A stretch of DNA of 45,494 bases from Clostridia bacterium. GTDB taxonomy: Bacteria; Bacillota; Clostridia; RGIG6154. Location of the stretch: contig JAZNOU010000018.1 of assembly GCA_045589295.1 (NCBI GenBank), positions 1 to 45,494 of the forward strand, given 5' to 3'. The notes beneath the pieces were generated by a model. That model saw nothing but the letters and a program-made list of their open reading frames with translations, did not search any database and was not told where the DNA came from. How positions within the stretch are numbered: position 1 is the first letter of the stretch; each line of letters begins with the position of its first letter. Both the position numbers and the translations under genes were made by a program. Of this stretch, positions 996 to 19,374 are shown piece by piece.

Positions 996-1029
996 ACGTA
1001 TAATACAGTAGATAAGAGGGAATTTGCAT

Positions 1030-3257: not shown

Positions 3258-3410
3258 GCTCTGCACCTCCTTTATTGTTTAAATTCAATGTGTATTATCA
3301 GTCGTTTAAAATGTTGTAGATAGCTTCAAGGATAAGCTGAATCGCATCATAATTCATATATACATTTCTCCTTTCTGAAAGATAATATATAACTCCGGTT
3401 AAGTATTCTA

Positions 3411-5138
3411 CTAACTGCGAAGATCCTCCCAAAAATTCGAAGATGGTATGTAATATCCAAACAAATTTATTCTTCTTTCAGTAACCATTCTCTGGAATTC
3501 TGCTTTGATGATTTTTACATATCTGTTTGGGGTTGCTTTACCATTAATACTTACTACATGAGTGTTATTACGTGCAGTTGACTGAATTAATCCATGTTCT
3601 GCAAGCTGGGATAAGATAGCATGTTTTGTAATGATATACTTACAGTTGTTATCTTTGTTGAAACATTTAGTAATATCATCCGGGGCAATGCAAATATAGC
3701 CATCTGTTTCGAAAAATATTTTCCTCTTTTTTGGCCTGTTTTTATATTTTTCAAAATTTTTTGCAACAACATCCTTGTAGTTGTACATTAAATAGTCCAG
3801 TATTGTATTAGTATACCAGGTTCCGGCTGAAGCTTCTTCTTGTTTCAGCAGTTTAAGTGTTGAGCAGATGCTTTCATCAACTCCGATTTGCAATGAATTA
3901 CCAATCTTTTTCATCTGTGGATAAGGCAATTTGTAAACCTCCTTTAAATAATCCATAATAATTTTCACTGTCATATTAAGAATATTATAAATATTCTGAG
4001 TGCGATGTATACTCCCGTTATACGAATCTTCATCTTCAACATTCAAAGGCTTGAAGGTCCAGTTTGGAACCAGCACTTTATATTGGTTGTATGATCCGCA
4101 TATCCAGTCAATAAATTTATCAAGAAATACAGTGTAGTATTCCTGATGTTCCTGCAACCAGGAAAGTCTTTCAGGCAAAAAATTGTTCGGGAATTCCACT
4201 ATCAGGCATCTGTTGATAGTACTTGGGTTCTTAACCATATATTCTGCAGTAACAACAGGGGTGGCAGAGAATTTTAGAGTTTTTCCGTCAATGTTAAGGG
4301 TGTCGTTTGATTCGTACCTTTGCACCATGGTTGAGAAAATTTTTTCATTTCTGGACTTTACCTCTGTAGATGATGTCTTGTTTAACTCTTCAATCAGTAT
4401 CGGGCAATGCCTGAATGATGATAGTTTTTTAAAGAAATCCTTGCGGTCATCACAAAAACTACATCCTCTTGTTATACCTTCGTACGTTGTGAGCAACTTC
4501 CCGTATGAAGTTTTTCCGCAACCGGTTGAGCCGATGAGCACTATACATATTTTCTGTTTTATATTCTTCAATTCCAAAAATGGACTTGTATACGAACTTA
4601 ACGCTGCTACTAAGAACCCTGCGTATGCTGGTTTATCAGATATAAATTTTTCAATAAACTCTAACTCATTGGTGATTTCATCTGATGGGGTATAGGGTAT
4701 CATTTCGTTACAATGTATTGACATTATATCTATATTTCCTACGTCTCCATAGGTTTTGAATTCAGATACGCATATCAGATTACCGTTTAACATGTAATAT
4801 CCGGGAAAACATTTATGAACCTCCTTATCTTTGCTTGCTTCAAGTTCTGCCATAATTATTTTTTCTAAAACTGTTTTCCTTGCCCTGGTTCCGTCTATGT
4901 TGAAGGCAGAAAAGGGGACTGATTTGAAAATTTTATCAATATCCAACTTTTCAAATGTTTCGTGCAATACTATATGACCATTATCAATCACCTCAAGAAC
5001 ATAAATTAACTTATCCCCCGTTTCTTCTGATATGATTTCTTTATGAATTGTAATAGCGTGATTGGTGAGCCTTATCTCGTTGTCGCTCCAATAAACTCCG
5101 TCATCACTTTTTTGTATATTATTTAAAGTTAAGCTCAT
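3411..5138 (-). CDS. DUF927/Cch2-like AAA+ ATPase, putative replicative helicase
   Basis: Walker A GSTGCGKT, Walker B ILIEEL, sensor VVTAE, Arg finger STINRCL. ATG 5138 follows AAGGAGGT. Confidence 0.7.
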   Translation of the reverse strand: MSLTLNNIQKSDDGVYWSDNEIRLTNHAITIHKEIISEETGDKLIYVLEVIDNGHIVLHETFEKLDIDKIFKSVPFSAFNIDGTRARKTVLEKIIMAELEASKDKEVHKCFPGYYMLNGNLICVSEFKTYGDVGNIDIMSIHCNEMIPYTPSDEITNELEFIEKFISDKPAYAGFLVAALSSYTSPFLELKNIKQKICIVLIGSTGCGKTSYGKLLTTYEGITRGCSFCDDRKDFFKKLSSFRHCPILIEELNKTSSTEVKSRNEKIFSTMVQRYESNDTLNIDGKTLKFSATPVVTAEYMVKNPSTINRCLIVEFPNNFLPERLSWLQEHQEYYTVFLDKFIDWICGSYNQYKVLVPNWTFKPLNVEDEDSYNGSIHRTQNIYNILNMTVKIIMDYLKEVYKLPYPQMKKIGNSLQIGVDESICSTLKLLKQEEASAGTWYTNTILDYLMYNYKDVVAKNFEKYKNRPKKRKIFFETDGYICIAPDDITKCFNKDNNCKYIITKHAILSQLAEHGLIQSTARNNTHVVSINGKATPNRYVKIIKAEFQRMVTERRINLFGYYIPSSNFWEDLRS

Positions 5139-5337
5139 ATAAGGCACCTCCTTTCTTAATTGATAACCTTTTGGTCTCATTAATATTATAAGGCATACTG
5201 ATACTGTGTTTTTCCGTAATTATAAAAAAGTCGCCTTCGGCAACTAATGTTCGCTTTGTTCACTTTTTTTAGAGGTAGACTTTTATGAAACAAGCAAAAT
5301 TACTCACAAAGTGAGCAATTTCCTATGTTATAAAAAA

Positions 5338-5379
5338 ATAATAAATCCTATGATAGTGAAATATCATAGGATTTATTAT
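5338..5379. terminator. Stem-loop downstream of the 5385-6767 gene
   Basis: 18-bp inverted repeat ATAATAAATCCTATGATA / TATCATAGGATTTATTAT. Confidence 0.65.
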
Positions 5380-5384
5380 AGTGA

Positions 5385-6767
5385 TTATTCTTTTATTTGT
5401 TTTTGCACGGATTTTGCAATCTTGTAATTATACTCTATTTCCTTCTTATCCTCATTCCGCAATCTTTCTATTTCATCAGATGAAATAGGGAAAGAATAGT
5501 TTCCTAAAAATTTTGCCACATTTATAAGGTTCTGTTGTTTACAATTCTTAATGGCTTCTTCAAGTTCAGTTTCATCAAAACTGCTGACTTTAATCCACGG
5601 TTGATAATCAGCAATATCACACGTTTGCGAATCTTTCTTTTTTTGCAGTCTTTCTGCTTTTGTGTATTCTTCTTTCTTTGAAAGTCTCATATTGTGATCT
5701 TTATTTCGATCTTCAGTTTCTTGTTTGATCATATCTTCTTGTTCTAACAATAGTTTTTCCGCATACTCGTCTAATTCAATTGCTATGTTGCACCACATTT
5801 TAGTACTTTCATCCAGATTGTCGTAGCAGCTTTTTTCTATAGCCGTAAATATATCTTGGTGCTTTGTCTCATCAAGTGCCACAAAATCATCAATTATTTC
5901 TTTCTTTTCATCAGTATGGAGGTTTATAATATATTTGGCTGCGTTAAATCGGTATATTGCGGGATATAACAATTTTTCGCACAACATATCGCGGTATTCA
6001 CCACATTGGAACCATTTTCTTGATTTTAAAACATGCCAGAGTTTACGAAACAATTCTTTTCTCCATTCATAATCCAGTATCTCCCAATGGTCACGATTAA
6101 GCATCTGGCGGTCTTGGGGTGAAAGTTCATCGTATTTTAATATCAGGTATAAAAATAAATCCTGTTCCTCTTCTGAATTCTTTGAATCAAAAATAGCAAT
6201 AGGTTTGTTTGAGGAATATCTTTCATCTAAGTTTTCGTAATATTCAATTGAAAAGCCAATTTTCATAAAACGGATAAAGGCTTCGGTTACTTCTGCACTT
6301 ATTTCATTCTTATCAGTAATTTCATGGTCTTTAATAAAGAAAAAACCTTTATAAAACTTCATATAACCGACGTTTTTATGATATTCGTCAGTTTTAAACA
6401 ATGAGCTTACAGCTTCTAAAAAATCATATTTAGCGGTGATGTATTTTGTAGCATCATCTTTTTCATAATTGCGTTTTTCAAAGCGTGTCCGTTCTACCAA
6501 TGTATCTGTTACAATATAGTCGCCAATATCAATTCTGCGATCTTTAAACATTGTACCACGAGGCTTGTATATACTCAATGAAGATGAAAAGGGAGTCATG
6601 CGTCTGTTATAGAATAAGTATCTTAAAAAAGCAATTACCTTATCTTTGCAATATCTCTCAAAATCATCCTTCATTGCTTTTTTGTATGTTATATCATCTT
6701 CGTTTTTATAATCAGGTGTTTTGCTGATTATCTCACAGTATTTTTCAATCCATTTGCATTCTTTCAT
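5385..6767 (-). CDS. Hypothetical protein (460 aa, charged, helical)
   Basis: Long ORF in AT-rich DNA; likely ATG 6767 after GGTGG; no motif recognised. Confidence 0.75.
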   Translation of the reverse strand: MKECKWIEKYCEIISKTPDYKNEDDITYKKAMKDDFERYCKDKVIAFLRYLFYNRRMTPFSSSLSIYKPRGTMFKDRRIDIGDYIVTDTLVERTRFEKRNYEKDDATKYITAKYDFLEAVSSLFKTDEYHKNVGYMKFYKGFFFIKDHEITDKNEISAEVTEAFIRFMKIGFSIEYYENLDERYSSNKPIAIFDSKNSEEEQDLFLYLILKYDELSPQDRQMLNRDHWEILDYEWRKELFRKLWHVLKSRKWFQCGEYRDMLCEKLLYPAIYRFNAAKYIINLHTDEKKEIIDDFVALDETKHQDIFTAIEKSCYDNLDESTKMWCNIAIELDEYAEKLLLEQEDMIKQETEDRNKDHNMRLSKKEEYTKAERLQKKKDSQTCDIADYQPWIKVSSFDETELEEAIKNCKQQNLINVAKFLGNYSFPISSDEIERLRNEDKKEIEYNYKIAKSVQKQIKE

Positions 6768-6875
6768 AATACCACCCGATACTATTATATCATAACAAAA
6801 ATAAATGTGCAAAATTAAAAACACACAAAATTAATGTGTTTATGTGTGTTTTTTCTGAGAATTTTGTGTAATTTA

Positions 6876-7856
6876 TCATTTTATATATCCGTAATGACTT
6901 CCAACCCTGATGCGATTAAGCTGACCTTTTTGTGCATATGCGGTTAAGATTCTTGTAGCAGTTGCCGATGATACTCCAAGGAGTTTCTGTACATCACTGT
7001 TCATAATATATTCATGTTCGTCAAGGAATGCGTATATCTGGCTTAGTCGTGTGTCAGCCTTATTGCTTACAGAGGTTATCTGAAATTCCCCGGCTTCAAG
7101 AAGCGCCTGCTTTATAACTGATAGCATGAATTCTATAAATATGGTTGATTCGCATGTGTTGTTAGATGTGTTTATAGCCTCATAATAAGCTTTTTGGTTA
7201 TTATGGATTATTGATTCTACCGGAAGCCAGGCAAATATAGGATTCCATTTTGATAAGAGTAATGTGTGCCACAGCCTGCCCATTCTTCCGTTACCATCAG
7301 AAAAGGGATGAATCAATTCGAATTCGTAGTGAAATACACAACTTTTTATAAGCATATGCAAATTACTTTCACGAACCCAGTCCATAAGCTCGGATACAAG
7401 TTTTGGAACATATCTGGGAAGGGTTCCAAAATGCAGGATTTCACCTTTGCTATCAACCACACCAACAGGTCTGGATCTGAATTCTCCCGCTTCGTTCACA
7501 AGCCCTTTTACCATGATTCCGTGAGCTTTTAAAAGGTCATCTGTTGAATATGGATTAAGGCTATCCATACATTCGTAAATTTCATAAGCGTTTTTAACTT
7601 CTGCAATGTCCTTTGGAGGAGCAATAATTCGCTTGCCTGATAATACTGCGGTAACCTGCTCCAAGTCAAGAGTATTTTGCTCTATGGCAAGGGAAGAGTA
7701 TATTGTCCGGATTCTGTTTGTTCTTCTTAAAGTAGGATTTACAGATATCTGGTTTCCTACACTTACTTTTCCCACAAGCTCTGCAATTTCTATTACATCT
7801 GTCATTATTTTTTCGGTTATTTCAAATGGTGGTTTTTTGTTTTTCACATGATTCAC
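6876..7856 (-). CDS. Fic family AMPylase with C-terminal HTH (class II-like)
   Basis: Canonical HPFSDGNGRMGR motif, N-terminal inhibitory-type SLAIEQN motif, C-terminal HTH (LLGVSSATATRIL). Start may be GTG 7847. Confidence 0.92.
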   Translation of the reverse strand: MNHVKNKKPPFEITEKIMTDVIEIAELVGKVSVGNQISVNPTLRRTNRIRTIYSSLAIEQNTLDLEQVTAVLSGKRIIAPPKDIAEVKNAYEIYECMDSLNPYSTDDLLKAHGIMVKGLVNEAGEFRSRPVGVVDSKGEILHFGTLPRYVPKLVSELMDWVRESNLHMLIKSCVFHYEFELIHPFSDGNGRMGRLWHTLLLSKWNPIFAWLPVESIIHNNQKAYYEAINTSNNTCESTIFIEFMLSVIKQALLEAGEFQITSVSNKADTRLSQIYAFLDEHEYIMNSDVQKLLGVSSATATRILTAYAQKGQLNRIRVGSHYGYIK

Positions 7857-7930
7857 CTCTTAGTTATTGTACCATTTCATCAATCAAAAATCAAGTCATA
7901 AATCATTTTTTTGGTTGATGACTTGATGCA

Positions 7931-9022
7931 TCACCAAAACAACTGATTTTTATCTTTTGGTTTAATGTACGCAAATCTTGAAATTTCTTCATCAGTTTTG
8001 CCATCTAATATATCACTGAATGAGGGAATGTAAGGAAATACTGTATACACAGGTGAAAGTTTTATGCTTTCAAAATGTCTCAATGCTCTGTATGCTTTGT
8101 CAGTCGTGAAATCATATTTATTTTTGTTATTGACTGCATCACGGTATGTTTTCATATTTTTGATACGCACGTTTTTGCCATCAAATTTCATTTTAAGGTA
8201 CTTGTTTTGTAGTTGTTTTGATACCATACTTCCATCCATAAGTACCTGTTTAAAATAGTTGCTTATGATGCTTTCACTGGCACGAGTGACTTTGCACAAA
8301 GGAACGCTTAAGTCCTTTAGTTGTATTTGCTTTGAATTTATATAACCATTTTCAATCAAAGGTTTGGTCTTTAAAGATACTTCGAATCTCAGTAGTCCTT
8401 TATTATCAATATCAAGGGAAAAATTATGATTAACAAGGTCTTGCTTTTTATTGTATACTTTAGCATTGATGTTTTTACTGTAATACATGGATGAATCTTC
8501 CAATCTCCACTTTTTCTTTTTTGACTTTTCATCGGGAGTATAGTTAGTGTATCCGTATTTCTTAGGTGCCAATCTGGATAATCGAATAATTTCCAATGTA
8601 TATTCATCACTTGGCGTAATGACATCTTTGGCTATGTCAACTCTTTTTAAAATTAAGTTATCGTGCAGATAAATTCCTGATTCAGAGTGTATTGAATTTA
8701 AGATTTCAATAGCGTTGTTGATTGCGGACTCAATATCATTTTCCTTTGTAATCATTCCGTATTCCATTCCCGGGTGTAAGAGTTTAAATAGATTTATTAT
8801 TATCTCAACTTTATACTTGTGATGTTGTTTGTCAAAGGTTTCTTCCGGCTTACTGTTTTTAGCTATTTTTAAGGTGATTCCAAGATTGCTGTACTTGTGC
8901 ATAATGTAATTCTTTTCAGTAGCAAGCCATAATGTGTTATTTTTATATACTTCTGTAAGTTTTGTTTTATCTGTTGTGTTTATGTATTTTTTTAATGAAA
9001 TTGTATGAATGAATGTATTCAT
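7931..9022 (-). CDS. Rolling-circle-type replication initiator (Rep_trans / phage CRI-like)
   Basis: Motifs LKRVDIAKD, KVYNK and LLRFEVSL in the expected order. ATG 9022 after AGGAGTG. Confidence 0.7.
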   Translation of the reverse strand: MNTFIHTISLKKYINTTDKTKLTEVYKNNTLWLATEKNYIMHKYSNLGITLKIAKNSKPEETFDKQHHKYKVEIIINLFKLLHPGMEYGMITKENDIESAINNAIEILNSIHSESGIYLHDNLILKRVDIAKDVITPSDEYTLEIIRLSRLAPKKYGYTNYTPDEKSKKKKWRLEDSSMYYSKNINAKVYNKKQDLVNHNFSLDIDNKGLLRFEVSLKTKPLIENGYINSKQIQLKDLSVPLCKVTRASESIISNYFKQVLMDGSMVSKQLQNKYLKMKFDGKNVRIKNMKTYRDAVNNKNKYDFTTDKAYRALRHFESIKLSPVYTVFPYIPSFSDILDGKTDEEISRFAYIKPKDKNQLFW

Positions 9023-9236
9023 AATAATCACTCCTTTTACTGTATTGTTTAAACCAAATTAAAATATATTAAACTCTGATGAACATAAACAAATAGATAA
9101 AAAAGATATAAGCATGTCCTGTATAAAACATACATTAAGGATATAAGGTTACTACTGCCTGTACTATACAACAAAACACGGATAAAATAGTATAAATATA
9201 TATATGCAGATCGAAGTTTATTGTTTGAACAAAGAC

Positions 9237-9265
9237 AAGACGATAGAGAAAAACTCTATCGTCTT
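9237..9265. terminator. Hairpin between the HTH gene and rep (terminator or origin hairpin)
   Basis: AAGACGATAGAG-aaaaa-CTCTATCGTCTT. Confidence 0.55.
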
Positions 9266-9273
9266 TTATGATG

Positions 9274-9456
9274 TTACAATCCTTTCAGATACTCTATTAA
9301 TGCATAACGGGTTATACGCCACCTATTTTTGATACGAAATGCATCGATGTATCCCTTGTGAAGCAGATCAAGCATGGTGTTTTTTCCTACCTTCAACACC
9401 GCTCTTGCTTCATTAAATGTCATGATATCAGGGATATCAGAGAAACTTCTGTACAT
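9274..9456 (-). CDS. Excisionase-like HTH (HTH_17) DNA-binding protein
   Basis: 60 aa PDIMTFNEARAVLKVGKNTMLDLL...AFRIKNRWRI; RBS AAGGAGTG. Confidence 0.85.
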   Translation of the reverse strand: MYRSFSDIPDIMTFNEARAVLKVGKNTMLDLLHKGYIDAFRIKNRWRITRYALIEYLKGL

Positions 9457-9597
9457 AAAATCACTCCTTTAAAATAAAAATTTGTTTTATATAAGTGTTT
9501 AACATTTTAAAACTAATTGTATTGGTTTTGTCGCATAGTGCAAACGATAAACTATATATTATTTATACAAGTAAACTAATAAGGAGGGAAAAACGTT

Positions 9598-9891
9598 GTG
9601 AAAAGGTTTGAAAATAAACGATTTATCACCAATGGGATCGCAAAAAACATCGAACCACTTCTGCAGGTTTTTATGTGGCATTGCATTGATGAGATGCCGT
9701 TTCCCAAAGATTATCTTCAGGTGTTTGATTTGGTGATAGAAAGCCGTAAAGCCAAAGTTAAACATAGTCAGGAAGAGCCTGAGTACAAAAAGGAGTATCT
9801 GCTTAACGTGGATACTCCTTTTTATGTGGGGAAAATTTTTGTAATTGATGATGAAACTCACTCTACCATGTTGTTGGCAGAGGAATATTGA
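9598..9891 (+). CDS. DUF960 family protein
   Basis: RFITNGI...DYLQVF...KIFVIDD...TMLLAEEY signature; RBS AAGGAGGG. Confidence 0.85.
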   Translation: MKRFENKRFITNGIAKNIEPLLQVFMWHCIDEMPFPKDYLQVFDLVIESRKAKVKHSQEEPEYKKEYLLNVDTPFYVGKIFVIDDETHSTMLLAEEY

Positions 9892-9905
9892 AAGGAATGA
9901 AAATT

Positions 9906-11012
9906 ATGGAAGAAAAAATGTTTTGTTATGTTTGCGGTGTTGAGCTTACAGAAGAAACCGCAAGAAATTTTGACGGTCAGGTTATGTGTGAACACTGTCT
10001 TATTGAACAAACGGTCGTCTGCGATAATTGCGGGGACAGAATCTGGAGGGACAACGCAGAGGGAAATAGCGTTTACACACTATGTTCCGACTGCTATGAT
10101 AACTGCTACACAACCTGTGAGGATTGCGGAAGACTCATCCATAATGACGATGCATATTACGAGGATGGTGGGGACTACCCGTACTGTCGGGATTGTTATG
10201 AAAAGTTAAACGATTATACAATTAAGAACTACAGTTATAAGCCTGAACCTATTTTTTATGGTTCTGGTAATATTTTTTATGGCGTTGAATTGGAAGTTGA
10301 CAAAGGTGGCGAAGAAGGAGCAAAAGCTCAACAGTTACTTGATATTGCCAACGAAACTGACGAAAGAATATATTGCAAACATGATGGATCTATCAACAAT
10401 GGCTTTGAAATGGTATCTCACCCAATGACACTTGATTACCATATAAACAATATGAATTGGCTTGATGTGTTTGAAAAAGCTATTGAAATGGAATATCGTT
10501 CTCATAACACTTCTACGTGTGGTTTGCATATTCATTGTTCCCGCTCTGCTTTTGGAAAAACCTACGAGCAACAGGAACAGGCAATCGGCAGAGTTGTGTT
10601 CTTTGTAGAAAAGCATTGGAATGAGATTGTTAAATTCAGCCGCAGAACTTTGGATAACTTAAATCGTTGGGCCGCAAAATATGCGACTATTTCAAGCACA
10701 ACAGAAGAAACTTACAAAAAAGCGAAGGATAAGTGCTTAGGAAGGTATGTGGCTGTCAATCTTGAAAACTGCGGCACTATTGAGCTCAGATTGTTCAGAG
10801 GTACACTCCGCTACAAAACATTTCTTGCTACCTTGCAGTTTGTTGACGAAATTTGTTACTGTGCTATCAATATGACAGACAAAGAAATTGAAGATATGTC
10901 CTGGTTAGATTTTGTACAGCGCATTCCACCTAAAAAAGCGGAACTTATTGAATACTTAAAAGAAAAAAGATTATATGTGAATGAAGTAATAACAGAAAGT
11001 GAGGAGATGTAA
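9906..11012 (+). CDS. Putative amidoligase (COOH-NH2 ligase fold) with N-terminal tandem Zn fingers
   Basis: Six CxxC pairs, then GVELEVD, HDGS, FEMVSHP, CGLHIH, RYVAVN and TIELRLFRGT. ATG 9906 (track start 9888). Confidence 0.85.
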   Translation: MEEKMFCYVCGVELTEETARNFDGQVMCEHCLIEQTVVCDNCGDRIWRDNAEGNSVYTLCSDCYDNCYTTCEDCGRLIHNDDAYYEDGGDYPYCRDCYEKLNDYTIKNYSYKPEPIFYGSGNIFYGVELEVDKGGEEGAKAQQLLDIANETDERIYCKHDGSINNGFEMVSHPMTLDYHINNMNWLDVFEKAIEMEYRSHNTSTCGLHIHCSRSAFGKTYEQQEQAIGRVVFFVEKHWNEIVKFSRRTLDNLNRWAAKYATISSTTEETYKKAKDKCLGRYVAVNLENCGTIELRLFRGTLRYKTFLATLQFVDEICYCAINMTDKEIEDMSWLDFVQRIPPKKAELIEYLKEKRLYVNEVITESEEM

Positions 11013-11966
11013 ATGTGCGGATTATTTGGTTTTTTAAATTACAGCGGTGATAAAATTAAGGATTTATCAAAATTAACAAATTATCTGGCAAGAGAATCTA
11101 CTGCCAGAGGAACAGACGCCACCGGAATTGCTTATGTCAATTACGGTGGTATTCATATTGAAAAAGATAATAAATCAGCTTACAGAATTGATTTTAAACA
11201 TTCAGATGACATCAAAAGTTTGATCGGGCATACACGTCATTCTACGCAAGGGAGCGAGAAACACAATTACAACAATCACCCTTTTATAGGTAATTGCAAA
11301 GATTCAAGATTCGCACTTGCACATAACGGAGTAATTTCAAATGATAAGGAACTTCGTAAAAAGCACAAATTGCCCAGAACTAAAATCGAGACTGATTCAT
11401 ACATATCAGTTCAGTTAATTGAAAGTAAAAAGTTTCTTGGCTTTGACAGTCTTAAGTTTACTGCAGAGCAAATAAATGGAACATTCAGCCTGGCTCTTCT
11501 TGATGAAAACTCAAACGTGTATCTTGTTAAAGGCGACTCGCCGCTTTCAATCCTTAATTTCCCAAAATTGAAAATCTATGTCTACGCTTCTACAGATGAG
11601 ATACTTTACAAAGCTATTGTGGACTATCCGCCTTTGTTTAATGCTTTGAAAAATGGTGAGTATGAAAAGATAAGCATATCTGAGGGGGATATTTTAAAGA
11701 TAAGATCTGACGGCGTTATTGAAAAAAGCACATTCGAATACAACACTTACTACGGCAGAGACTGGTGGTATTATGGTTCGTACTCTTTGTTAAGTACAGA
11801 AAATGATGTAAAGGGATACACAAAGGATGCGTACATAGAAGATATTAAATCGGTGGCTTGCTATTTGGGGTATTCTCCTGAGGAGATAGATATTCTTGTT
11901 GCTGAGGGGTATACTCCTGAAGAGATTGAAGAGTACATATATTGTTGTACTGGTGGTGATGTATAG
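11013..11966 (+). CDS. Class II (Ntn) glutamine amidotransferase
   Basis: MCG N-terminal nucleophile, RGTDATG, GHTR, HPF, HNG, TDS. Start abuts the amidoligase stop codon. Confidence 0.9.
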   Translation: MCGLFGFLNYSGDKIKDLSKLTNYLARESTARGTDATGIAYVNYGGIHIEKDNKSAYRIDFKHSDDIKSLIGHTRHSTQGSEKHNYNNHPFIGNCKDSRFALAHNGVISNDKELRKKHKLPRTKIETDSYISVQLIESKKFLGFDSLKFTAEQINGTFSLALLDENSNVYLVKGDSPLSILNFPKLKIYVYASTDEILYKAIVDYPPLFNALKNGEYEKISISEGDILKIRSDGVIEKSTFEYNTYYGRDWWYYGSYSLLSTENDVKGYTKDAYIEDIKSVACYLGYSPEEIDILVAEGYTPEEIEEYIYCCTGGDV

Positions 11967-12135
11967 ATAAAATGAAGTACATTAAGTTATGCTTAATAGC
12001 ACTGATAGAACTTTTCGTAGAAGCCTGGGTAAATCGGAATGATAAAGGTAGTAGTTGATAAGAGTGTAAGTGTTTATGCGGTTTATGTTGATGTGTCAGC
12101 TTTTCTTTCCTCCCCCGAAACGATTAAATTAAACG

Positions 12136-12176
12136 AATAGCCGTAAACCTTTGTAATATGTGGGTTTACGGCTATT
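12136..12176. terminator. Stem-loop between convergent genes
   Basis: AATAGCCGTAAACC...GGTTTACGGCTATT, 14-bp inverted repeat. Confidence 0.6.
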
Positions 12177-12193
12177 ATGAATTTAATCGATTT

Positions 12194-13060
12194 TTATTTT
12201 GAACATGATTTCATATTATCAATCAAGTAATTAACAAAAGCACTGCATGAAACAAGCATAAACTTTGCTTCTGCAAAAGTAGCATCTTTTCCGTCAATTC
12301 TTCCGGCATGTCTAATTCCACTTTCGTCACTTGTATATCCATATAATTTTTCAAATGCAGATTTAAGAGATGGGTGTATTGAGATGCTAGATTCTTCAAG
12401 TTTTTTCAGACTTGCTCCCAATGTACCGGATTTACCCAAGATGATATTACACATTTCTTCAACAGCAGAAATACTTTCCTTTATGGAATTTTCATAATCA
12501 GGATTTGCTCTATCAGACAAAAGTGATGTTGCTTTGTTTAAAAACTCGGTTACTTTTACAAATTTAGAATTTGAAGCTTTTTCTATTTCTTTAATCTCAA
12601 TATCATTTGTTATAGGCGTAATGGCATCATTTACATAACGATATCCTACATATTCCTTCTCTAAAAGATTATTTAGATAGATGTTTAAATTACATTCTTC
12701 ACACTCCTCTTCTTTAAATATATTTTTAACTTTCTTTACGATGAATTCTATGATAGTTAAAATATCATCATATTCGTCTTTGCGAATGGTTTCTTTTATT
12801 ATTTCTAAAACTTTTTTTGAATTATAAGAACCACCAAAATTTATCTCTTGTACATATACATCTTTTAATATGCTTTGTAATAAAAATTGTTGGTTATTAT
12901 ATGTAAAATTCACAATCCAACCATTAAAAATTAAATCTATGAAATTACATAATTCAATTCGTGTTCGTTCATCGAAATTCGTTAATTGCATAGTAGTGTT
13001 TTCTTTTTTTATATTGTTTCTATCCGAAAATCCGTTTCTTAACCTAACTTTTAGACCCAT
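12194..13060 (-). CDS. AbiJ-NTD4-like protein with HEPN-like C-terminus (candidate abortive infection)
   Basis: N-terminal FSDRN...RIELCN, central E..GYR, C-terminal NSIKESISAVE...KLYGYTSDESGIRHA...AKFMLVSCSAFVNYL. Confidence 0.7.
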   Translation of the reverse strand: MGLKVRLRNGFSDRNNIKKENTTMQLTNFDERTRIELCNFIDLIFNGWIVNFTYNNQQFLLQSILKDVYVQEINFGGSYNSKKVLEIIKETIRKDEYDDILTIIEFIVKKVKNIFKEEECEECNLNIYLNNLLEKEYVGYRYVNDAITPITNDIEIKEIEKASNSKFVKVTEFLNKATSLLSDRANPDYENSIKESISAVEEMCNIILGKSGTLGASLKKLEESSISIHPSLKSAFEKLYGYTSDESGIRHAGRIDGKDATFAEAKFMLVSCSAFVNYLIDNMKSCSK

Positions 13061-13286
13061 ATTTTTTCTCCTGTATAAAATTTAATTATATTACTCATCT
13101 CATTATATCACACATATAAAGTAGACTCAAGCCTTTTTGATGAGCAATGTGAAAACTCATCATTATCAGTTATATATTATACTCTTGAAATTAACAATGT
13201 AAATTTCAATGAATTTTACAAATGGTGATTTCAAAGAAAAAAGTCTAAAATTATAATAATGAGTATAATTAGGAGGTGAATTTCAA

Positions 13287-13529
13287 ATGGAAGCAAAAGA
13301 TTTTGCAGATATTTATGAGGAAATTGCCGTTGAAGCGGGAGCGGAAACCGCTGTTAAAATACATAAATTATTTAAAGGTCAACAGATTTTGTTTCCGCAG
13401 AAGTTATATAAAAAAGATTACATATATAACTATATCAGAGAAAATTATAACGGCAAGAATATTCGTGAACTATCCAAAATGTTTGGATATTCAGATAGAC
13501 GAATACGGCAAATTTTAAGCGAAGTTTAA
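13287..13529 (+). CDS. Mor transcription activator family protein
   Basis: FKGQQILFP...NGKNIRELSKMFGYSDRRIRQIL HTH; RBS AGGAGG. Confidence 0.85.
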   Translation: MEAKDFADIYEEIAVEAGAETAVKIHKLFKGQQILFPQKLYKKDYIYNYIRENYNGKNIRELSKMFGYSDRRIRQILSEV

Positions 13530-13552
13530 TTTAAGTTTGGAGGAATATTAAA

Positions 13553-13738
13553 ATGGAAATTGCATTAATTATTGCGTATGTTGTACTGAGTTATTGGGCA
13601 GCCGGTCAAACCATTTATGCTAACAAAATAAGAATAGGAACATTCAATAATTTATTTTTAAGCAGATTTATTGTAGGTTGTCTTTTGGGCATTGTCCTTA
13701 TTCCAGTTGCAATTATTAGAAAAATATTTAATGTTTAG
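13553..13738 (+). CDS. Small membrane protein (2 TM)
   Basis: 61 aa with two hydrophobic segments; RBS GGAGG. Confidence 0.7.
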   Translation: MEIALIIAYVVLSYWAAGQTIYANKIRIGTFNNLFLSRFIVGCLLGIVLIPVAIIRKIFNV

Positions 13739-13767
13739 TAAGTAGATTCTTTAAGGAGGAAATTAAT

Positions 13768-14430
13768 ATGGCTATTATAAATTGTCCCGAATGTGGGAAC
13801 TCTATCAGCACAAAAGCAGTGTCTTGTGTGAAATGTGGATTTCCATTAAGTGAAATATTTATATGTCCTGAATGTAATAATGTTGAAGCCAAAAATGATT
13901 CAGGGGTATGTTCAAAGTGTGGTTGTCCTATTGATGATAATACGAATAGTAAGCAGGAAACAAATAAAGCAAATAACACTTCAAATGAGTCCGGCGAACA
14001 ATCACTTGAAGAGTATATTAGAATTGCTGAAAAAATAGTATCTGAAGTTTTAGCACATCATACTTTTGGTGGAAGTGGTATATTATCAGAATCTGGCAGA
14101 CTAATCTCTGATTTGAGAAAGGTTAAGGCAGCAAAAACAGCATTTAGTATACCAAATGAAGATAATGTTTTCTTTATTGCGAGTGGAAATATTTGGGGAG
14201 GAATTAATGAAAATAGCAAGGGTTTTGCGTTGACTTCTAGAGGTATTTACGGTGTAGATGACCATAAAAAGCAAGTCTTTTTCTGGTATGACCAATTTGC
14301 TCAACTAAAAGTCAGTATGTTTATGTCATATGTAAAATTAGACGAATACGAATTCAATGTAACAGATACCAAAAAAATAAAAAACATGCTCTTAGATTTA
14401 CAGGATGAATTATTGGCTCATATGGACTGA
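13768..14430 (+). CDS. Double zinc-ribbon domain protein
   Basis: CPECG..CVKCG..CPEC..CSKCG; C-terminal GFALTSRGIY domain; RBS AAGGAGG. Confidence 0.8.
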   Translation: MAIINCPECGNSISTKAVSCVKCGFPLSEIFICPECNNVEAKNDSGVCSKCGCPIDDNTNSKQETNKANNTSNESGEQSLEEYIRIAEKIVSEVLAHHTFGGSGILSESGRLISDLRKVKAAKTAFSIPNEDNVFFIASGNIWGGINENSKGFALTSRGIYGVDDHKKQVFFWYDQFAQLKVSMFMSYVKLDEYEFNVTDTKKIKNMLLDLQDELLAHMD

Positions 14431-14529
14431 AAATATAAATAAGTATAAACCCTATTTTCGCCTTGCTATCGTTGTGCTGAAAGGATTTATTCCTGTATCT
14501 GAGAAATTGTCAAAATGATATTGCGGACT

Positions 14530-14560
14530 GAAGGACTTCCAACTGGAAGTCCTTCTTTTC
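14530..14560 (+). terminator. Rho-independent terminator
   Basis: GAAGGACTTCC-aact-GGAAGTCCTTC-TTTT. Confidence 0.7.
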
Positions 14561-14733
14561 TATTATTATAATACTTTCAAATAATCTAGCACCGCTTCTT
14601 TTAAATTTTTTGTTTTATATTAGTGGTCGTTTGTTTGTAAAAGTTTATATCTTACCTGTAAATAAATTCAAAGTTGTTTATATATTATACCTTTGGTTAT
14701 AAACCAACATAAACTTAGGAGGATTATCTAAAT

Positions 14734-15026
14734 ATGAGAAAATTTAACAACAAAAAATTTATTACAAAAGGGTTAACAGAAAATATTAATCCGCTTCTAC
14801 AGGTCTTTATGTGGCAGAATATTAACAGATTGCCACTTCCTTAAGACTATTTACAGATAGTTGATTTAACCATAGCTAATGGGAAACAAAAAATAACACA
14901 CATTCAAGAATGTCAGAATATCGAAAGGAGTATATACTAAACATAGACACGCCTTTTTATATTGGCAATGTTTTCGTAATTGATGATGAAACCCGCTCTA
15001 CTATGTTAATGCCAGAGGAATATTAA
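14734..15026 (+). pseudogene. Second, disrupted DUF960 gene
   Basis: MRKFNNKKFITKGLTENINPLLQVFMW...LP*DYLQ... with in-frame TAA at 14842-14844 and a frameshift near 14913, resuming EYRKEYILNIDTPFYIGNVFVIDDETRSTMLMPEEY. Colinear with 9598-9891. Confidence 0.85.
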
Positions 15027-15199
15027 AACAGAAAGAAGGAAAAATGTGAAAATTATTAGATTTATAGTAACCGCTATCGACTTGCTTGTAGATGTAGCTG
15101 TTGAGGTCTACATAAAACGGAGACGTTAGAGGATTTAAAGATGTAGCTTTATGCACAATTAAAATGTAAAACAGGAAATATGATAAGAGGTGAATTTAA

Positions 15200-15745
15200 T
15201 TGATTTATGGATATGCAAGGGTATCTACGGCAGACCAATGCTTGAATCGACAGACAGATGCTTTGAAAAATTATAGAGTTGACAAAATCTTTTGTGAAAA
15301 GATTTCAGGCACTAAAAAAAACAGACCTGAACTCGATAAACTTCTTTCAGAAGTCGGTTCGGGAGATACAATAGTTATTGAATCCCTTTCACGATTAGGA
15401 AGGTCTGTAAAAAACCTCGCTGAGCTTATGGAGTTTTTTAACGATAATAATATCAGGCTTGTATCATTAAAAGAAACCATTGACACAACATCATCTACTG
15501 GCAGATTATTATTTACTATAATTTCAAGTCTATCACAGTTTGAGCGTGATGTGTTGGTTGAACGTACCCGTGAGGGGTTGAACGCGGCAAGAGCTCGTGG
15601 TAGACGCGGAGGCCGACCAAAATCTGACAGAGATAGTACCGCAAAAGCTATTGCCCTTTATAATACAAAGCAATATACGTTAAAAGAAATTACTGATTTA
15701 ACAGGAATTTCAAAATCAACACTTTACCGTGCAATAAAGGGTTAA
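15200..15745 (+). CDS. Small serine resolvase/invertase with C-terminal HTH
   Basis: YGYARVST, EKISG, SLSRLGR, GRRGGRP, TGISKSTLYR. Confidence 0.95.
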   Translation: MIYGYARVSTADQCLNRQTDALKNYRVDKIFCEKISGTKKNRPELDKLLSEVGSGDTIVIESLSRLGRSVKNLAELMEFFNDNNIRLVSLKETIDTTSSTGRLLFTIISSLSQFERDVLVERTREGLNAARARGRRGGRPKSDRDSTAKAIALYNTKQYTLKEITDLTGISKSTLYRAIKG

Positions 15746-15765
15746 ATTATGGCACTTTGATATTG

Positions 15766-15860
15766 AAACGAGTATTGGGACTGAACTGTTTCCCAATACT
15801 CGTTTTTGTATTTGGTTTTGGAACAATCGTCAAAAGTTTCAAAAACCTTCGTTTATGAAA
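15766..15860. promoter_or_regulatory. Inverted repeats after the resolvase gene (candidate res site and/or terminator)
   Basis: 15-bp inverted repeat AAACGAGTATTGGGA / TCCCAATACTCGTTT (15766-15805), plus imperfect palindrome TTTCAAAAAC..GTTTATGAAA (15837-15860). Confidence 0.5.
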
Positions 15861-15947
15861 TGGTAATCAATTTGATTTTTTTCTGGTTTGTGATATAATT
15901 GGCATTGGAGATTTAATATTTTTATAATCATAGATTGGAGAAGATAT

Positions 15948-16121
15948 ATGTCAAAGAAAAAGAAGTCTCCAAAGAATTACAAACAATATCCTATTTATAA
16001 ATTAGAAGAAGGAATGGTGGTTCTTGGTTCACTTATAAGTGGTGTAGCTGTAAACTTAAAAAAATATAAAACTTATGGTGAAGAAGTAAGTGCTTTAAAA
16101 TTTGTTGTATTTATGGTATAA
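15948..16121 (+). CDS. 57-aa ORF, probable gene fragment
   Basis: MSKKKKSPKNYKQYPIYKLEEG..., RBS GGAGA, extended -10 TGATATAAT at 15891-15899. Confidence 0.4.
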   Translation: MSKKKKSPKNYKQYPIYKLEEGMVVLGSLISGVAVNLKKYKTYGEEVSALKFVVFMV

Positions 16122-16160
16122 TTAACTATCATTTATTACTTTTTGCGAAGGAGAAGCAAT

Positions 16161-16469
16161 ATGTCTAAAATAACAGATATAAAAGCTAAAATTACCGAAT
16201 TGGAAGGCGGAGCTTTTCAGGAACTGTGCGATGCCTTGCTATCACGTAAAGGTTACGAAGGAATTACATCTTATGGATTACACTCTAGTTCTATGAAAAC
16301 AACAAAGGGGAATCCTGATACATATTTTAAAAGTAAGACAGGAAAGTATATTTTTGTAATGTATACAACGCAACAAAGCGACGTTTTTGAAAAAGCAAAA
16401 GAAGATATAAAAAAATGTCTGGATTCATCAAAAACAGGAATTGCAGAAAGGGATATCAGGAAATATTAG
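16161..16469 (+). pseudogene. Truncated N-terminal Mrr-like/PD-(D/E)XK domain of a REase-STAND NTPase type gene
   Basis: LEGGAFQELCDALL..KGY...KTTKGNPDTYF...YTTQ...DIKKC resembles the N-terminus of large nSTAND proteins. Stops after about 100 aa with no P-loop. Confidence 0.55.
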
Positions 16470-16518
16470 ACTTTGCCAAAGATTGGTTTGGTAAAAAATA
16501 AGTAAAGGAGTATAAAAC

Positions 16519-17061
16519 ATGTGTAATTTTAAAGAAAAAATATATGTTATTAAAGGACAAAACTTGAAACATATTTCAAGAGCAGGTTCTATGGTTAATA
16601 TCGGAGTTGGAGAAATGGTAAAACATAAAGTTGCTCACAAAGAGGATAACGGAAAGTTTTCGGTCAAAGAAGTTTTAGCACCAAAGTATGCCCTTCATAT
16701 TGATAGTTTTTTCAGAATATATAAAGAAAATGAACTTTTAATTGCAAAAGGTGATATGTTTTGCCCTTGCAATGGAATTGAACAAGGAAAAGATTTTGAT
16801 ATTGATAACTTTGATTGGGAAAAACAAGGGTCAAATGCTTTGGACGCAAAAATAAAAGAATATTTATCTTCGGAGGATTTGATTGTGCAGGAAATACTTT
16901 TAAATGATTTTAATGATTTGAAGATAGTTTTTACAAATGGAATATGCATAGAAATCTTTGCAGATTGTACCGAAGAGCAAGAATGTTGGAGATTTTTTGA
17001 GGTAGGAAACTCCGATAAAAAGCATATAGTGGTTACTGGAAAAGGTATTTTTGAAGAATAA
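16519..17061 (+). CDS. Putative immunity protein
   Basis: 180 aa, acidic, DLKIVFTNG..E.WRFF; RBS AAGGAG; preceded by a short ORF tail (..QEILDFAKDWFGKK*, ending 16501). Confidence 0.55.
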   Translation: MCNFKEKIYVIKGQNLKHISRAGSMVNIGVGEMVKHKVAHKEDNGKFSVKEVLAPKYALHIDSFFRIYKENELLIAKGDMFCPCNGIEQGKDFDIDNFDWEKQGSNALDAKIKEYLSSEDLIVQEILLNDFNDLKIVFTNGICIEIFADCTEEQECWRFFEVGNSDKKHIVVTGKGIFEE

Positions 17062-17649
17062 GTAGGTGGCGGAGGAAATTTCGGGAATACCTACGGGGCA
17101 AGTTTAGATGCTTTAAGTAACTTTTTAACTGCAGTATCGCTTATACCAGGTGTAGATACCATCGCAGACTTTTTAGCAATTCCCGTTGACCTTGCAAGAG
17201 GAGACTTCACATCTGCAGGGCTTGATGCGCTTGGAGTGATTCCTGTTTTAGGTGAAATTGCAGACACTGCAAAAATCGCTAAAGTAGCAGATAAAGCTGT
17301 GGATGCTGCGAAGGCAGTAAATAAGGCTACAGATGTTGCGAAAGGAACTAAAAAAATATCGTTACCAGATAAACCTGCTCAAATAAAACATATATTCGGT
17401 AATAGAACCGGTCATTTGCCCGATACGCCAAGCAATCGAAAACTTTTAACCGAGACTGCAAATACGCCTAAATATTATCAGGGTACAGATAAATACGGGA
17501 ATGACTGGCATGCAAAAATAGACAACAAAGGAAGACAAGTTTGGGTACGAAGTCGAAATGGTAAAATTAATGAAGGAGGAAGAAATAACACTCCTCGTTT
17601 ATGGGATAAAGAAACAGGATTAAATAACAATCCGTTTAGAACAAAATAG
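17062..17649 (+). pseudogene. Orphan polymorphic toxin C-terminal cassette 1 (pre-toxin segment plus putative RNase toxin domain)
   Basis: Frame open from 17062 with no credible start/RBS: SLIPGVDTIAD...ARGDFTSAGLDALGVIPVLGE (PT-TG-like), then KHIFGNRTGHLPDTPSNR...DKYGNDW...QVWVR..GGRN. Confidence 0.75.
17192..17331 (+). repeat. Pre-toxin homology block, copy 1
   Basis: 140-bp imperfect direct repeat of 18051-18190; differences mostly at third codon positions. Confidence 0.9.
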
Positions 17650-17663
17650 AAAGGAAGAAGTAA

Positions 17664-17984
17664 ATGAATATTTATAAAGCATTCGTATATATGTTTTATG
17701 CAATGGACGCTATGTATGATAACAATTCCAGTAAAACTTTAGGTAATTATTTGAGTGGGCTTAATCCTTTTTTGTTTAATGACGAAAGTTCTGCAGACCC
17801 TGCCGAATATGAAAAATTTAAAAAGGAATATTTTTTGGCTTTTAAAGAATCAGTTCCAACATCATCTGAAGTGTATGATTTTTGTATAACTTATCTTTCA
17901 AAATATGCACCTAAAGCAGCATATGATGCGTTTAAAAAAGTCGAAAAAGGAAAATGGATATCTTCTTTTGAAGAAAAAAATTGA
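17664..17984 (+). CDS. Cognate immunity protein for cassette 1
   Basis: 106 aa directly after the toxin; MFY.MD..Y...LSGLNPF...SADPA motif typical of immunity proteins. Confidence 0.7.
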   Translation: MNIYKAFVYMFYAMDAMYDNNSSKTLGNYLSGLNPFLFNDESSADPAEYEKFKKEYFLAFKESVPTSSEVYDFCITYLSKYAPKAAYDAFKKVEKGKWISSFEEKN

Positions 17985-18049
17985 TAAACATTAGTTCTAA
18001 GCCACCTTCTTTTCAAATGCAGATGGCTTAGATAGCAATCCTCGCCTAA

Positions 18050-18496
18050 TTTGCAAGAGAAGACTTCACATCTGCAGGACTTGATGCACTTGGAGTGATT
18101 CCTGTTTTAGGCGAAATCGCCGACACTGCAAAAATCGCCAAAGTAGCGGACAAAGCTTTGGAGGCGACGAAGGCAGTAAACAAAGCAACAAAAAAGAGCA
18201 AAAGTATTATTACTGCAACAAAAAAGAGTTCTGCTTTAAAAAGTGTTGCTGAATTACCATCAAATATTCAAAAAAGTGCAAAGTCATTCTTTAAAGGTAG
18301 TTCTAACAACTACAATAATTATTCTGTAATAAAAAACAAGAATAATACTTATACAATAAAAATGGAAAATCCGGGTAAAGTCCCTGGTTCAAAGGCGGTT
18401 TACTACAAAATTGTTGACAGTAATGGTAAAACTATAAAAGTTTACAAGGATACTTTTGATCCTTTAGGAAATCTTGTTCATAGAAAGGATAAATAG
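18050..18496 (+). pseudogene. Orphan polymorphic toxin C-terminal cassette 2
   Basis: Same pre-toxin segment, different basic tip PGKVPGSKAVYYKIVDSNGKT...KDTFDPLGNLVHRKDK. In-frame stop at 18047-18049 upstream. Confidence 0.75.
18051..18190 (+). repeat. Pre-toxin homology block, copy 2
   Basis: Imperfect direct repeat of 17192-17331, offset 859 bp. Confidence 0.9.
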
Positions 18497-18498
18497 AT

Positions 18499-18861
18499 AT
18501 GAAAGCAGTATTAAGTGATTTTTTGAAATTAAAAATAGATTTAAACCAATTAAAAGGAAAGTTAGGGGAAGACCTTTACAATATTAAAATTACAAAACCT
18601 GAAAAGGTATGTGCAAAAGATCTGATATTCTTAATAAATCAATATACTTCAGGAAAAATTTCCATGCAAGCTGTTGTGGATTGGGTTAATGTTGTTTGGT
18701 TTACTGATTTGTATGAATATAATCCGTTGGAAGAAGAATCTATAGCAAGTGTTATGTCATTGCTTGAAACACTAGACGAAAGCGATGTTGATATCTCAGA
18801 TAAAGAATTCTCAAAAATGGTCGAGTGTCTTATAACCAATACGATATATGGGTTATGTTAA
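18499..18861 (+). CDS. Cognate immunity protein for cassette 2
   Basis: 120 aa, acidic, starts 2 bp after the toxin stop. Confidence 0.65.
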   Translation: MKAVLSDFLKLKIDLNQLKGKLGEDLYNIKITKPEKVCAKDLIFLINQYTSGKISMQAVVDWVNVVWFTDLYEYNPLEEESIASVMSLLETLDESDVDISDKEFSKMVECLITNTIYGLC

Positions 18862-18878
18862 TAAAGTGGTGATATCCA

Positions 18879-19244
18879 ATGACAAGTAAAGAACTTAAAT
18901 TAAAACTAATAGAAGCTTTGCCTGAAATCAAAGATGTATACAATGAAGAAACAAGTTGGCAGGAAGGTGATGAAACAGGCTCACATGTTGTTTATGAAGA
19001 TGTATTTGTGCCTTTTATAAAGGAGCAAATAGAAATTAAAAATAAAAATTCACTAACTAAAATATTTGAGTTTCTTGAGGAATTAATCAAATCTGGCAAT
19101 GATTATGCAATTGAAGTAGTTACATTAAGCGTTCTTGAATCGTTGCTTTTTGATGAAGATACAGACACAAAATTTTTTCTTCAATTTGCAAAAGAAAAAA
19201 CTTTGAAAATTATTCAGGAGATTGTGCAGGATTTAGAAACTTAA
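18879..19244 (+). CDS. Putative orphan immunity protein
   Basis: 121 aa acidic helical protein (HVVYEDVFVPF...IFEFLEEL...SVLESL); no adjacent toxin. Confidence 0.55.
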   Translation: MTSKELKLKLIEALPEIKDVYNEETSWQEGDETGSHVVYEDVFVPFIKEQIEIKNKNSLTKIFEFLEELIKSGNDYAIEVVTLSVLESLLFDEDTDTKFFLQFAKEKTLKIIQEIVQDLET

Positions 19245-19335
19245 TATTTGTAAGATAGGAGATGTGTTGTATTTTTGTTGAAATACAATTGTTTGCAAAC
19301 CTACAAATTTGTGGCAGTTGTATGATTTATAGTAT

Positions 19336-19371: not shown

Positions 19372-19374
19372 CAA

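Follow-up and report, generated by a model that had tools for sequence, protein, structure and literature searches.

A mobile operon of Clostridia is described here whose core is a pair of adjacent enzymes, an amidoligase with an N-terminal zinc module (the ligase) and a class II glutamine amidotransferase (GATase). It lies on contig JAZNOU010000018.1 of a Clostridia bacterium; the full 45,494-nt stretch of that contig is referred to below as the window. An earlier note, made from the letters of the DNA, had read positions 9598 to 11966 as three linked genes (DUF960, zinc-finger amidoligase and glutamine amidotransferase) and as a candidate tagging or modification system. That observation is confirmed: the operon is real, its genes are intact, and their families had been read correctly. 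The folds, the catalytic residues, the linkage of the genes and their mobile context are established by the analyses below. The reading that we favour, tentatively and as falling somewhat short of an even chance, is that the pair works as an amidoligase that depends on glutamine, has a protein-type target and serves the element that carries it, with DUF960 and a short peptide as accessory parts. The features of the operon are as follows.

9598..9891, + strand: DUF960 gene (PF06124), 97 aa from a GTG start; facultative first gene, with C-terminus -EY.
9906..10217, + strand: N-terminal zinc module of the ligase, residues 1-104; six CxxC pairs forming three Cys4 sites, LIM-like and strongly acidic.
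10218..11012, + strand: catalytic domain of the ligase, residues ~105-368; predicted glutamine synthetase-fold carboxylate-amine ligase, Amidoligase_2.
11013..11966, + strand: class II (Ntn) glutamine amidotransferase, 317 aa, assigned by GATase_6, Cys2 and structure matches.
11972..12058, + strand: 28-codon gene for a hydrophobic/amphipathic peptide, known from its translation and from the family found behind GATases; facultative fourth gene.
12136..12176, no strand assigned: terminator-like 15-bp hairpin, fold energy -23.8 kcal/mol, z -5.3.

Three intact open reading frames (ORFs) were called on the same strand of the window, at 9598-9891, 9888-11012 and 11013-11966, and an AGGAGG is present ~10 nt 5' of the GTG start at 9598. 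Within the second ORF, the ATG at 9906 was taken as the most likely start of the ligase, giving a protein of 368 aa. The DUF960 stop and the ligase ATG are then separated by a 14-nt gap (9892-9905), and the ligase stop TAA (11010-11012) abuts the GATase ATG at 11013, so that the tight linkage reported earlier was confirmed in the DNA. Two features had escaped the first reading: the peptide gene at 11972-12058, which appears to be coupled to the GATase gene, and a decayed cassette at 14735-15129.

The assignment of the ligase was supported by profile and structure comparisons. The protein matched Amidoligase_2 (PF12224) over residues 149-315 with 30.2 bits against a cut-off of 22 (E 5.4e-7), and PHROG 16683 over its full length (E 5.5e-89). 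A structure model of the ligase (pLDDT 92) was compared with known structures by VIA-align. Residues 120-368 superimposed best on the YbdK-type carboxylate-amine ligase 1tt4 (Z 12.7, rmsd 3.9, 215 residues aligned), followed by glutamine synthetases (GS; Z 11.8), glutamate-cysteine ligases (GCL; Z 11.5), Dop (Z 10.0) and PafA (Z 9.9); the next, unrelated fold reached a Z of 5.4. Foldseek concurred, with 1r8g at E 1e-5. We conclude that the catalytic domain, as modelled, is of the GS/YbdK/PafA fold, the COOH-NH2 ligase fold that had been proposed for it.

In an alignment of 52 diverse ligases, residues E128, E130, D160, S162, E168, H208, H210 and R295 were invariant, and R280, Y281 and E293 were kept in at least 90% of the sequences. 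The ExE (E128/E130), DGS (D160/S162), HxH (H208/H210), RY (R280/Y281) and ExR (E293/R295) motifs singled out in the earlier note are conserved, with the glycine of DGS, G161, being invariant in the 13 close relatives only. The conserved acidic, histidine and arginine residues form the predicted metal, ATP and acyl-phosphate site of the ligase fold.

The six CxxC pairs in front of the catalytic domain also proved real. All 12 cysteines were invariant in 13 relatives; in the 52 diverse relatives, 11 of the 12 were kept in at least 90% of the rows, none was listed as invariant, and C10 was off the list. The module had LIM-like matches in Pfam (E 1.2e-5) and to a PDB profile (E 0.008), and comparison of residues 1-104 with known structures gave weak LIM, FYVE or zinc-ribbon matches; in the ligase model its blocks had a pLDDT of 82-97. 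The module is strongly acidic. The window copy has a pI of 4.05, with 24 D/E versus 7 K/R, the median pI of the family is 4.22, and the value was below 5 in 47 of 52 rows and above 7 in none. Such a module would fit protein recognition better than nucleic-acid recognition, and its target would perhaps be a basic protein. A nucleic-acid-binding zinc module was considered, and was judged unlikely on account of the acidic charge. The ligase relatives P0125, P0157 and P0255 carry either an N-terminal DUF3846 domain, which was found in one of them, P0125, or BspA-type leucine-rich repeats at the C-terminus.

The partner of the ligase matched GATase_6 with 49.5 bits against a cut-off of 27 (E 5.6e-13); GATase_7 and GATase_4 also matched, and GATase_6 was ranked above GATase_4 by Pfam. 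Like those of Amidoligase_2 and DUF960, this match is above the cut-off, and all three family names given earlier are upheld. The protein begins with MCGLFG. Its Cys2, directly after the initiator methionine, was invariant in 18 of 18 relatives, in agreement with the intact Ntn nucleophile that had been claimed, as were R75, N105-G106 and D128. The segments HTRHST, HNG and TDS align to HTRWAT, HNG and TDT of human GFAT1, and we take the Arg, Asn-Gly and Asp, from the GlmS literature, to be residues of the glutamine pocket. In the structure model (pLDDT 82), a disordered linker joins the core (~1-245) to an acidic tail of three helices (~268-317), whose pI is 4.05-4.13 in all 18 relatives. The last 50 residues form a small acidic bundle of three helices; weak CUE/UBA-like matches (Z ~4) were given no weight. 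The model matched PurF best (Z 25.5; Foldseek E 1.2e-14), then GlmS (Z 24.4; isolated GlmS glutaminase domain 1xff, Z 23.7), GFAT1 (Z 22.9) and AsnB (Z 19.5); the hydrolase EgtC matched at Z 20.9, below PurF and GlmS. Judging from this model, which has the class II fold, the partner is a PurF/GlmS-type class II (Ntn) amidotransferase with an N-terminal Cys.

Linkage of the two genes was surveyed in 79 genome loci and 77 viral loci, a genome locus being counted as having room for a downstream gene when at least 900 nt followed the ligase. All 71 genome loci with room had a GATase gene behind the ligase, and an Ntn gene with an N-terminal Cys stood in this position in 60 of 68 viral loci with room. 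The eight exceptions were L112, L122, L123, L149, L150, L156, L161 and L162, of which at least two have truncated ligases. The viral partners included 28 members of a family without a Pfam match, which was recognised as a divergent class II GATase by hhalign (94.9%, E 4.6e-8). The co-occurrence of amidoligase and class II GATase given as known in the earlier note therefore holds almost without exception in both genome and viral loci. Moreover, the identities of ligases and GATases to their window copies covaried (rho 0.52, n=68). Because the linkage is near-universal and the divergence covaries, the enzyme pair is the core of the system. In viral loci L131, L133, L140, L142 and L163, a second, longer amidoligase follows the GATase; this order of ligase, GATase and ligase hints at two successive amide-forming steps. 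A free DUF3846 gene was found near the pair in 9 of 149 loci; in several, it stands a few genes downstream (L043, L050, L062, L105, L108 and L119 are listed for DUF3846).

The family is large. Among 5526 scored candidates of similar length, 4446 matched the ligase at E 0.001 or better, and 10284 representatives (50% clustering) reached this threshold, 1834 of them at 1e-30. At E 0.001 or better, 68 viral structure models matched as well, many of them named amidoligase, from crAss-like, Pseudomonas, Cellulophaga, Vibrio and mycobacterial phages. The pair precedes the primase in phage MEP401, where it occupies positions 5 and 6 among the 67 genes, and in mycobacteriophage Marvin it is located at the right genome end. 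In a 300-genome sample of the class, the ligase was found in 21 other genomes, and no copy turned up in the 11 sampled members of the window's own family. A search for DUF960 in the 17 other genomes of the order came back empty.

Class II GATases hydrolyse a gamma-glutamyl amide with the help of the Cys at their N-terminus, and a ligase of the GS fold converts a carboxylate and ATP to an acyl-phosphate, from which the acyl group passes to an amine or to ammonia. In the mechanism that we favour, the GATase Cys would hydrolyse glutamine and pass the ammonia on to the ligase, which would spend ATP to turn a carboxylate into an acyl-phosphate and then into an amide. The net reaction would be glutamine-dependent amidation by a two-subunit enzyme. 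The target would be selected by the acidic, LIM-like triple zinc module and would most likely be a protein or peptide, not a nucleic acid. The module as a whole would serve the element itself, in establishment or in conflict with the host after entry, and not host metabolism; DUF960 and the peptide would be accessory parts that are gained and lost. Amidation is favoured because the partner is nearest to true amidotransferases, because it keeps the full glutamine pocket, because it has no other synthase to serve, and because ligase and partner are translationally coupled 1:1. A protein target is favoured over DNA or RNA because both the zinc module and the GATase tail are acidic.

Several points weigh against this mechanism. 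To our knowledge, every characterised enzyme of the ligase fold activates the gamma-carboxyl of glutamate, and if free glutamate were the acid, the pair would run a futile cycle. Taken by analogy, the glutamate precedent and the cyclotransferase partners of other phage versions of the system would favour gamma-glutamyl ligation. The strong structural match of the partner to EgtC (Z 20.9) is a match to a hydrolase and not to an ammonia donor. By precomputed Pfam assignments, no ligase-GATase fusion was present among 83 longer ligase relatives, which is weak evidence in the same direction. Finally, the case for a role in the service of the element is drawn entirely from gene position.

Most of these points lead to an alternative that we regard as doubtful but as the most serious of those considered, namely that the two enzymes are the writer and the eraser of a gamma-glutamyl mark. 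The ligase would attach glutamate by its gamma-carboxyl to an amine, which could belong to a lysine of a host or element protein, to a polyamine or to the cell wall, and the Ntn hydrolase, whose pocket would recognise the free glutamyl moiety, would later remove the glutamyl group, following the logic of PuuA/PuuD or EgtA/EgtC. The fold of the ligase is that of GS, GCL, gamma-glutamylmethylamide synthetase, 1-naphthylamine GS and PafA, all of which, as far as we know, activate the glutamate gamma-carboxyl. The partner, in turn, is matched by the gamma-glutamyl amidohydrolase EgtC at the Z given above. Other phage and transposon versions, with a gamma-glutamyl cyclotransferase beside the amidoligase, are described in passages of three reports (PMC11318856, PMC10945688, PMC3485107). 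However, no Pfam match to GGCT/AIG2 was obtained among the ORFs of at least 100 aa in 738-19984, two shadow ORFs left out, in line with the earlier statement that no cyclotransferase partner is visible. The partner is also nearer to PurF and GlmS than to EgtC, and nearer to GATase_6 than to GATase_4. Furthermore, a writer and an eraser coupled 1:1 in one operon would cancel each other out unless they were separated in time or space.

The two small genes that flank the pair behave differently from the enzymes. DUF960 was identified at E 1.6e-27 (96.3 bits) over positions 1-94 of the 94 of the Pfam model PF06124. Of 71 loci with room, 30 have its end no more than 100 nt from the start of the ligase, 5 have it further off, and the remaining 36 do not have it in the flank. 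Its divergence does not track that of the ligase (rho -0.27, n=30). When presence was labelled by tblastn on a FastTree of ligases (27 of 65 positive), at least 13 changes were needed, compared to a mean of 21.2 and a minimum of 15 for shuffled labels. Looked at from the other side, DUF960 was present at 16 sites in 13 other genomes of an even sample of 300 class genomes, and at 13 of the 16 sites the ligase followed directly. The claim that the trio is conserved together thus stands for the enzyme pair, and for DUF960 insofar as it rarely occurs without the ligase; it fails in that DUF960 does not adjoin 41 of 71 ligases. We conclude that the pair can do without DUF960, an accessory that, for its part, is seldom found apart from the pair in Clostridia. 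One of the three sites at which the ligase does not follow DUF960 directly is L184, on contig C33 of genome G182. The ORF behind DUF960 there agrees with the start of a ligase from the same genome over its first dozen residues only, which suggests a scar left by recombination that removed the enzyme pair. The 36 DUF960 copies that were aligned all have -EY at the C-terminus. Since three copies without a ligase also have this ending, it is a trait of the DUF960 family. The family profile matched a solved, unnamed structure, 2r41 (E 4.5e-4), and by this match DUF960 is predicted to be a folded domain. No relationship between DUF960 and DUF3846 could be detected (hhalign probability 0.1%).

The 28-codon peptide gene starts 5 nt behind the GATase stop, a spacing with which it would be translationally coupled to the GATase. 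At least 26 of the 68 related loci with room have a member of its family downstream of the GATase gene. This is a count by sequence pattern, which misses divergent copies; reading by eye added copies at L001, L012, L015, L043 and L070, and two divergent candidates. Among 25 distinct copies, differences at codon positions 1, 2 and 3 numbered 2114, 889 and 3761, respectively, a substitution pattern that points to a translated gene, though selection of the set at the protein level inflates the effect. The peptide carries two conserved acidic residues four apart, and its presence changed 15 times on the ligase tree. Downstream, none of 200 shuffles gave a hairpin as good as that at 12136-12176; this terminator-like structure would close the operon against the convergent AbiJ-like gene.

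Both small genes could be imagined as substrates. According to this idea, the ligase would tag in cis, using ammonia from the GATase to amidate or extend the Glu-Tyr end of DUF960 or the acidic residues of the peptide, in the manner of Pup or of a tubulin tail; we consider it improbable, both as a general scheme and in this specific form. The succession of DUF960 and ligase at 13 of 16 sites, the -EY end of 36 of 36 copies, the apparent coupling and coding-type substitutions of the peptide gene, and the fold shared with PafA and Dop all speak in its favour. On the other hand, 41 of 71 ligases stand without DUF960 next to them, and the pattern leaves at least 35 of 68 without a peptide gene; the presence of the two flips 13 and 15 times on the ligase tree; DUF960 diverges independently of the ligase and retains -EY where the ligase is missing; and, unlike Pup, it is folded, to judge from 2r41. 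In addition, the peptide gene survives without the enzymes in the second cassette of the window. If cis tagging were nevertheless true, it would be an element-owned, Pup-like or tubulin-tail-like switch in gut Clostridia, controlling establishment or host takeover.

The operon resides on an island bounded by a catalase gene and the atp operon. The other features of the island relevant here are listed in order of position; Mor and a zinc-ribbon protein are among its further genes.

1734-3266, strand not assigned: large serine recombinase (Pfam Resolvase, Recombinase and Zn_ribbon_recom).
3411-5180, strand not assigned: 589-aa DUF927-like ORF (ESM Atlas feature match 0.99; no Pfam hit).
6876-7856, - strand: Fic protein (PADLOC SoFic, E 3.6e-41).
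7931-9031, strand not assigned: 366-aa protein with a weak rolling-circle Rep lead.
9274..9456, - strand: divergent HTH_17 excisionase-type gene (Pfam HTH_17, E 2.3e-10); conserved left neighbour of the cassette.
12194-13060, - strand: AbiJ_NTD4 (AbiJ-like) protein (PADLOC candidate system PDC-S32, E 2.1e-87).
14735..15026, + strand: decayed second DUF960 copy (PF06124 in two frames; in-frame TAA and frameshift).
15046..15129, + strand: second peptide gene copy with a GTG start, known from its translation; between the dead DUF960 and the resolvase gene.
15200-15745, strand not assigned: small resolvase (Pfam E 2.4e-43).

In related loci, the recurrent neighbours of the pair were a resolvase, a large serine recombinase, a Xis-type HTH gene, a MobA/VirD2 relaxase with NikA, and a D5 primase; a tyrosine integrase, DUF1643 and DUF3846 also recurred. 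The HTH_17 family was present upstream of the cassette in many of these loci, and although other genes varied, the pair was consistently flanked by the Xis-type gene and the resolvase. We read the operon as part of the element backbone and not as cargo. The recombinase, Xis and relaxase neighbourhood, together with the patchy distribution in the class, bears out the mobile location suggested earlier. The element is probably an integrative, mobilisable element of the SCC-like kind. Of the SCC-type traits, the large serine recombinase and DUF960 were matched in the window; DUF927 was matched by Atlas feature only, without Pfam support. No empty site could be located, since what relatives share on the left of the island is limited to the catalase gene, and the ends of the element were not located either.

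Remains of a second cassette are found in the same island. At 14735-15129, a DUF960 pseudogene that still ends in -EEY is followed by an intact peptide gene and then by the resolvase gene, with no ligase or GATase between them. Another cassette of HTH_17, DUF960 and ligase is present elsewhere in the same genome (contig C12:1-1100, L085); its ligase is 72% identical to that of the window and is cut by the contig end. The 1.54-Mb genome therefore carries at least two such elements.

The surroundings of the operon raise the possibility that it is cargo for anti-phage defence or abortive infection, which would, for example, burn ATP and glutamine or modify a phage protein upon infection. It lies between two genes of defence type, those for SoFic and for the PDC-S32 AbiJ-like protein, and a passage of a Clostridium prophage survey files amidoligases under 'phage defence' (PMC11318856). 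However, none of the DUF960, ligase and GATase proteins matched any family at E 0.001 or better among the 5027 models of PADLOC (PADLOC-DB 2.0). The pair also occupies a fixed backbone position, from Xis-type gene to resolvase, while the cargo varies, and it is common in lytic phages, in early regions, which fits offence or takeover better than defence of the host. We regard a defensive function as quite unlikely.

The least probable of the alternatives, in our view a very unlikely one, is that the operon tailors hypermodified DNA bases or is an auxiliary metabolic module for host nitrogen or glutathione-type metabolism: amidoligase and glutaminotransferase genes are described in one text as co-occurring with thymidine hypermodification genes in phage contigs (PMC8989533), and part of another proposes a nitrogen-metabolism role for a phage-borne set (PMC10945688), but no hypermodification kinase (5-hmdU), amino-acid:DNA transferase, hydroxymethylase or TET/JBP family was among the Pfam matches of element ORFs of at least 100 aa, the acidic zinc module is unsuited to DNA, and a metabolic enzyme would need neither three zinc fingers nor a fixed place in a mobile-element backbone.

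Two further observations were made in the window. Within 537-940, the 45 nt at 895-939 (GGTTCGAATCC, ending in CCA) resemble the 3' half of a tRNA and have a hairpin behind them. Many genomes of the class contain this stretch, with identities of 87-100%, and some relatives have several copies of the 400 nt that precede it. ARAGORN and Rfam made no calls in the window, the tRNA-like stretch included; it may be the remnant of an attachment site. At 37820-39932, two release-factor genes (PCRF + RF-1 domains) stand in tandem, the first with a GTG start and a short N-terminus, presumably as expected of a candidate prfB with the usual programmed frameshift.

Pairs of this type have been noticed before. 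Iyer, Abhiman, Burroughs and Aravind (Mol Biosyst 2009) reportedly predicted Amidoligase_2 and GAT-II pairs of phages and mobile elements, with or without a gamma-glutamyl cyclotransferase. The operon described here has the same two families, the same adjacency and the same phage and mobile-element home. It differs in that no cyclotransferase match was obtained and in that its subfamily has a triple Cys4, LIM-like zinc module. The subfamily further has DUF960 in front in about 4 of 10 cases and a peptide of ~28 residues behind in about 4 of 10, and it is located in the backbone of SCC-like islands of gut Clostridia. With SCC elements, the island shares the large serine recombinase, DUF960 and, going by the Atlas match, the DUF927-like protein, and its relatives share DUF1643; we take DUF927 to be the Cch helicase of SCC. 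In contrast to SCC, the host here belongs to Clostridia and the relatives carry relaxase and NikA genes, and we know of no report of the amidoligase pair in SCC.

With the PafA/Dop/Pup system, the ligase has a common fold (Dop Z 10.0, PafA Z 9.9) and, as an idea, the activation of a protein carboxylate and its joining to an amine. The partner here is a class II GATase and not a Dop-type paralogue, and a Pup-like disordered tag ending in GGQ or GGE was not found beside the ligase, where the neighbours are DUF960, predicted to be folded and with its -EY end, and the hydrophobic 28-mer. MurT has the Mur-ligase fold, and GatD is a class I (triad) amidotransferase; both families are unrelated to those of the pair, and the likeness is functional only. 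It consists in the fact that in Staphylococcus aureus, a co-transcribed ligase and glutamine amidotransferase, MurT and GatD, are described as carrying out peptidoglycan amidation, two genes together amidating a glutamate carboxylate with ATP, as in the working model favoured here (PMC3267633). In LUZ24-like Pseudomonas phages, as here, Amidoligase_2 and GATase_6 genes are close together: the part of PMC3890496 on phage UFV-P2 (ORF23, amidoligase; ORF25, glutamine amidotransferase) and phage tf places both in an 'early genes module'. Unlike here, the GATase of these phages has 486 aa, an HNH gene separates it from the ligase, COOH-NH2_lig and ATP-grasp genes are alongside, and that part of the paper reports no zinc-finger module (PMC3890496). 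In the literature searched, only annotation-level mentions were found for the pair, DUF960 or DUF3846, and no experimental function.

The operon is a further case of a long-known type of pair. Added here are a measure of how asymmetric the DUF960 link is, evidence that the peptide gene is coding and labile, the finding that the recognition module is acidic, and the decayed second cassette. Few enzyme modules without an assigned substrate are as common in phages and mobile elements as pairs of Amidoligase_2 and class II GATase, and the operon is a clean system in which to find one, with intact enzymes, an acidic target-recognition module and two small candidate partners encoded in cis. Its fixed backbone position in a small island makes it suited to heterologous expression. 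If the substrate were identified, thousands of genes of phages and islands could be assigned a function in a single step, and it would become clear whether the formation of amides is widely used as a weapon when elements and their hosts are in conflict.

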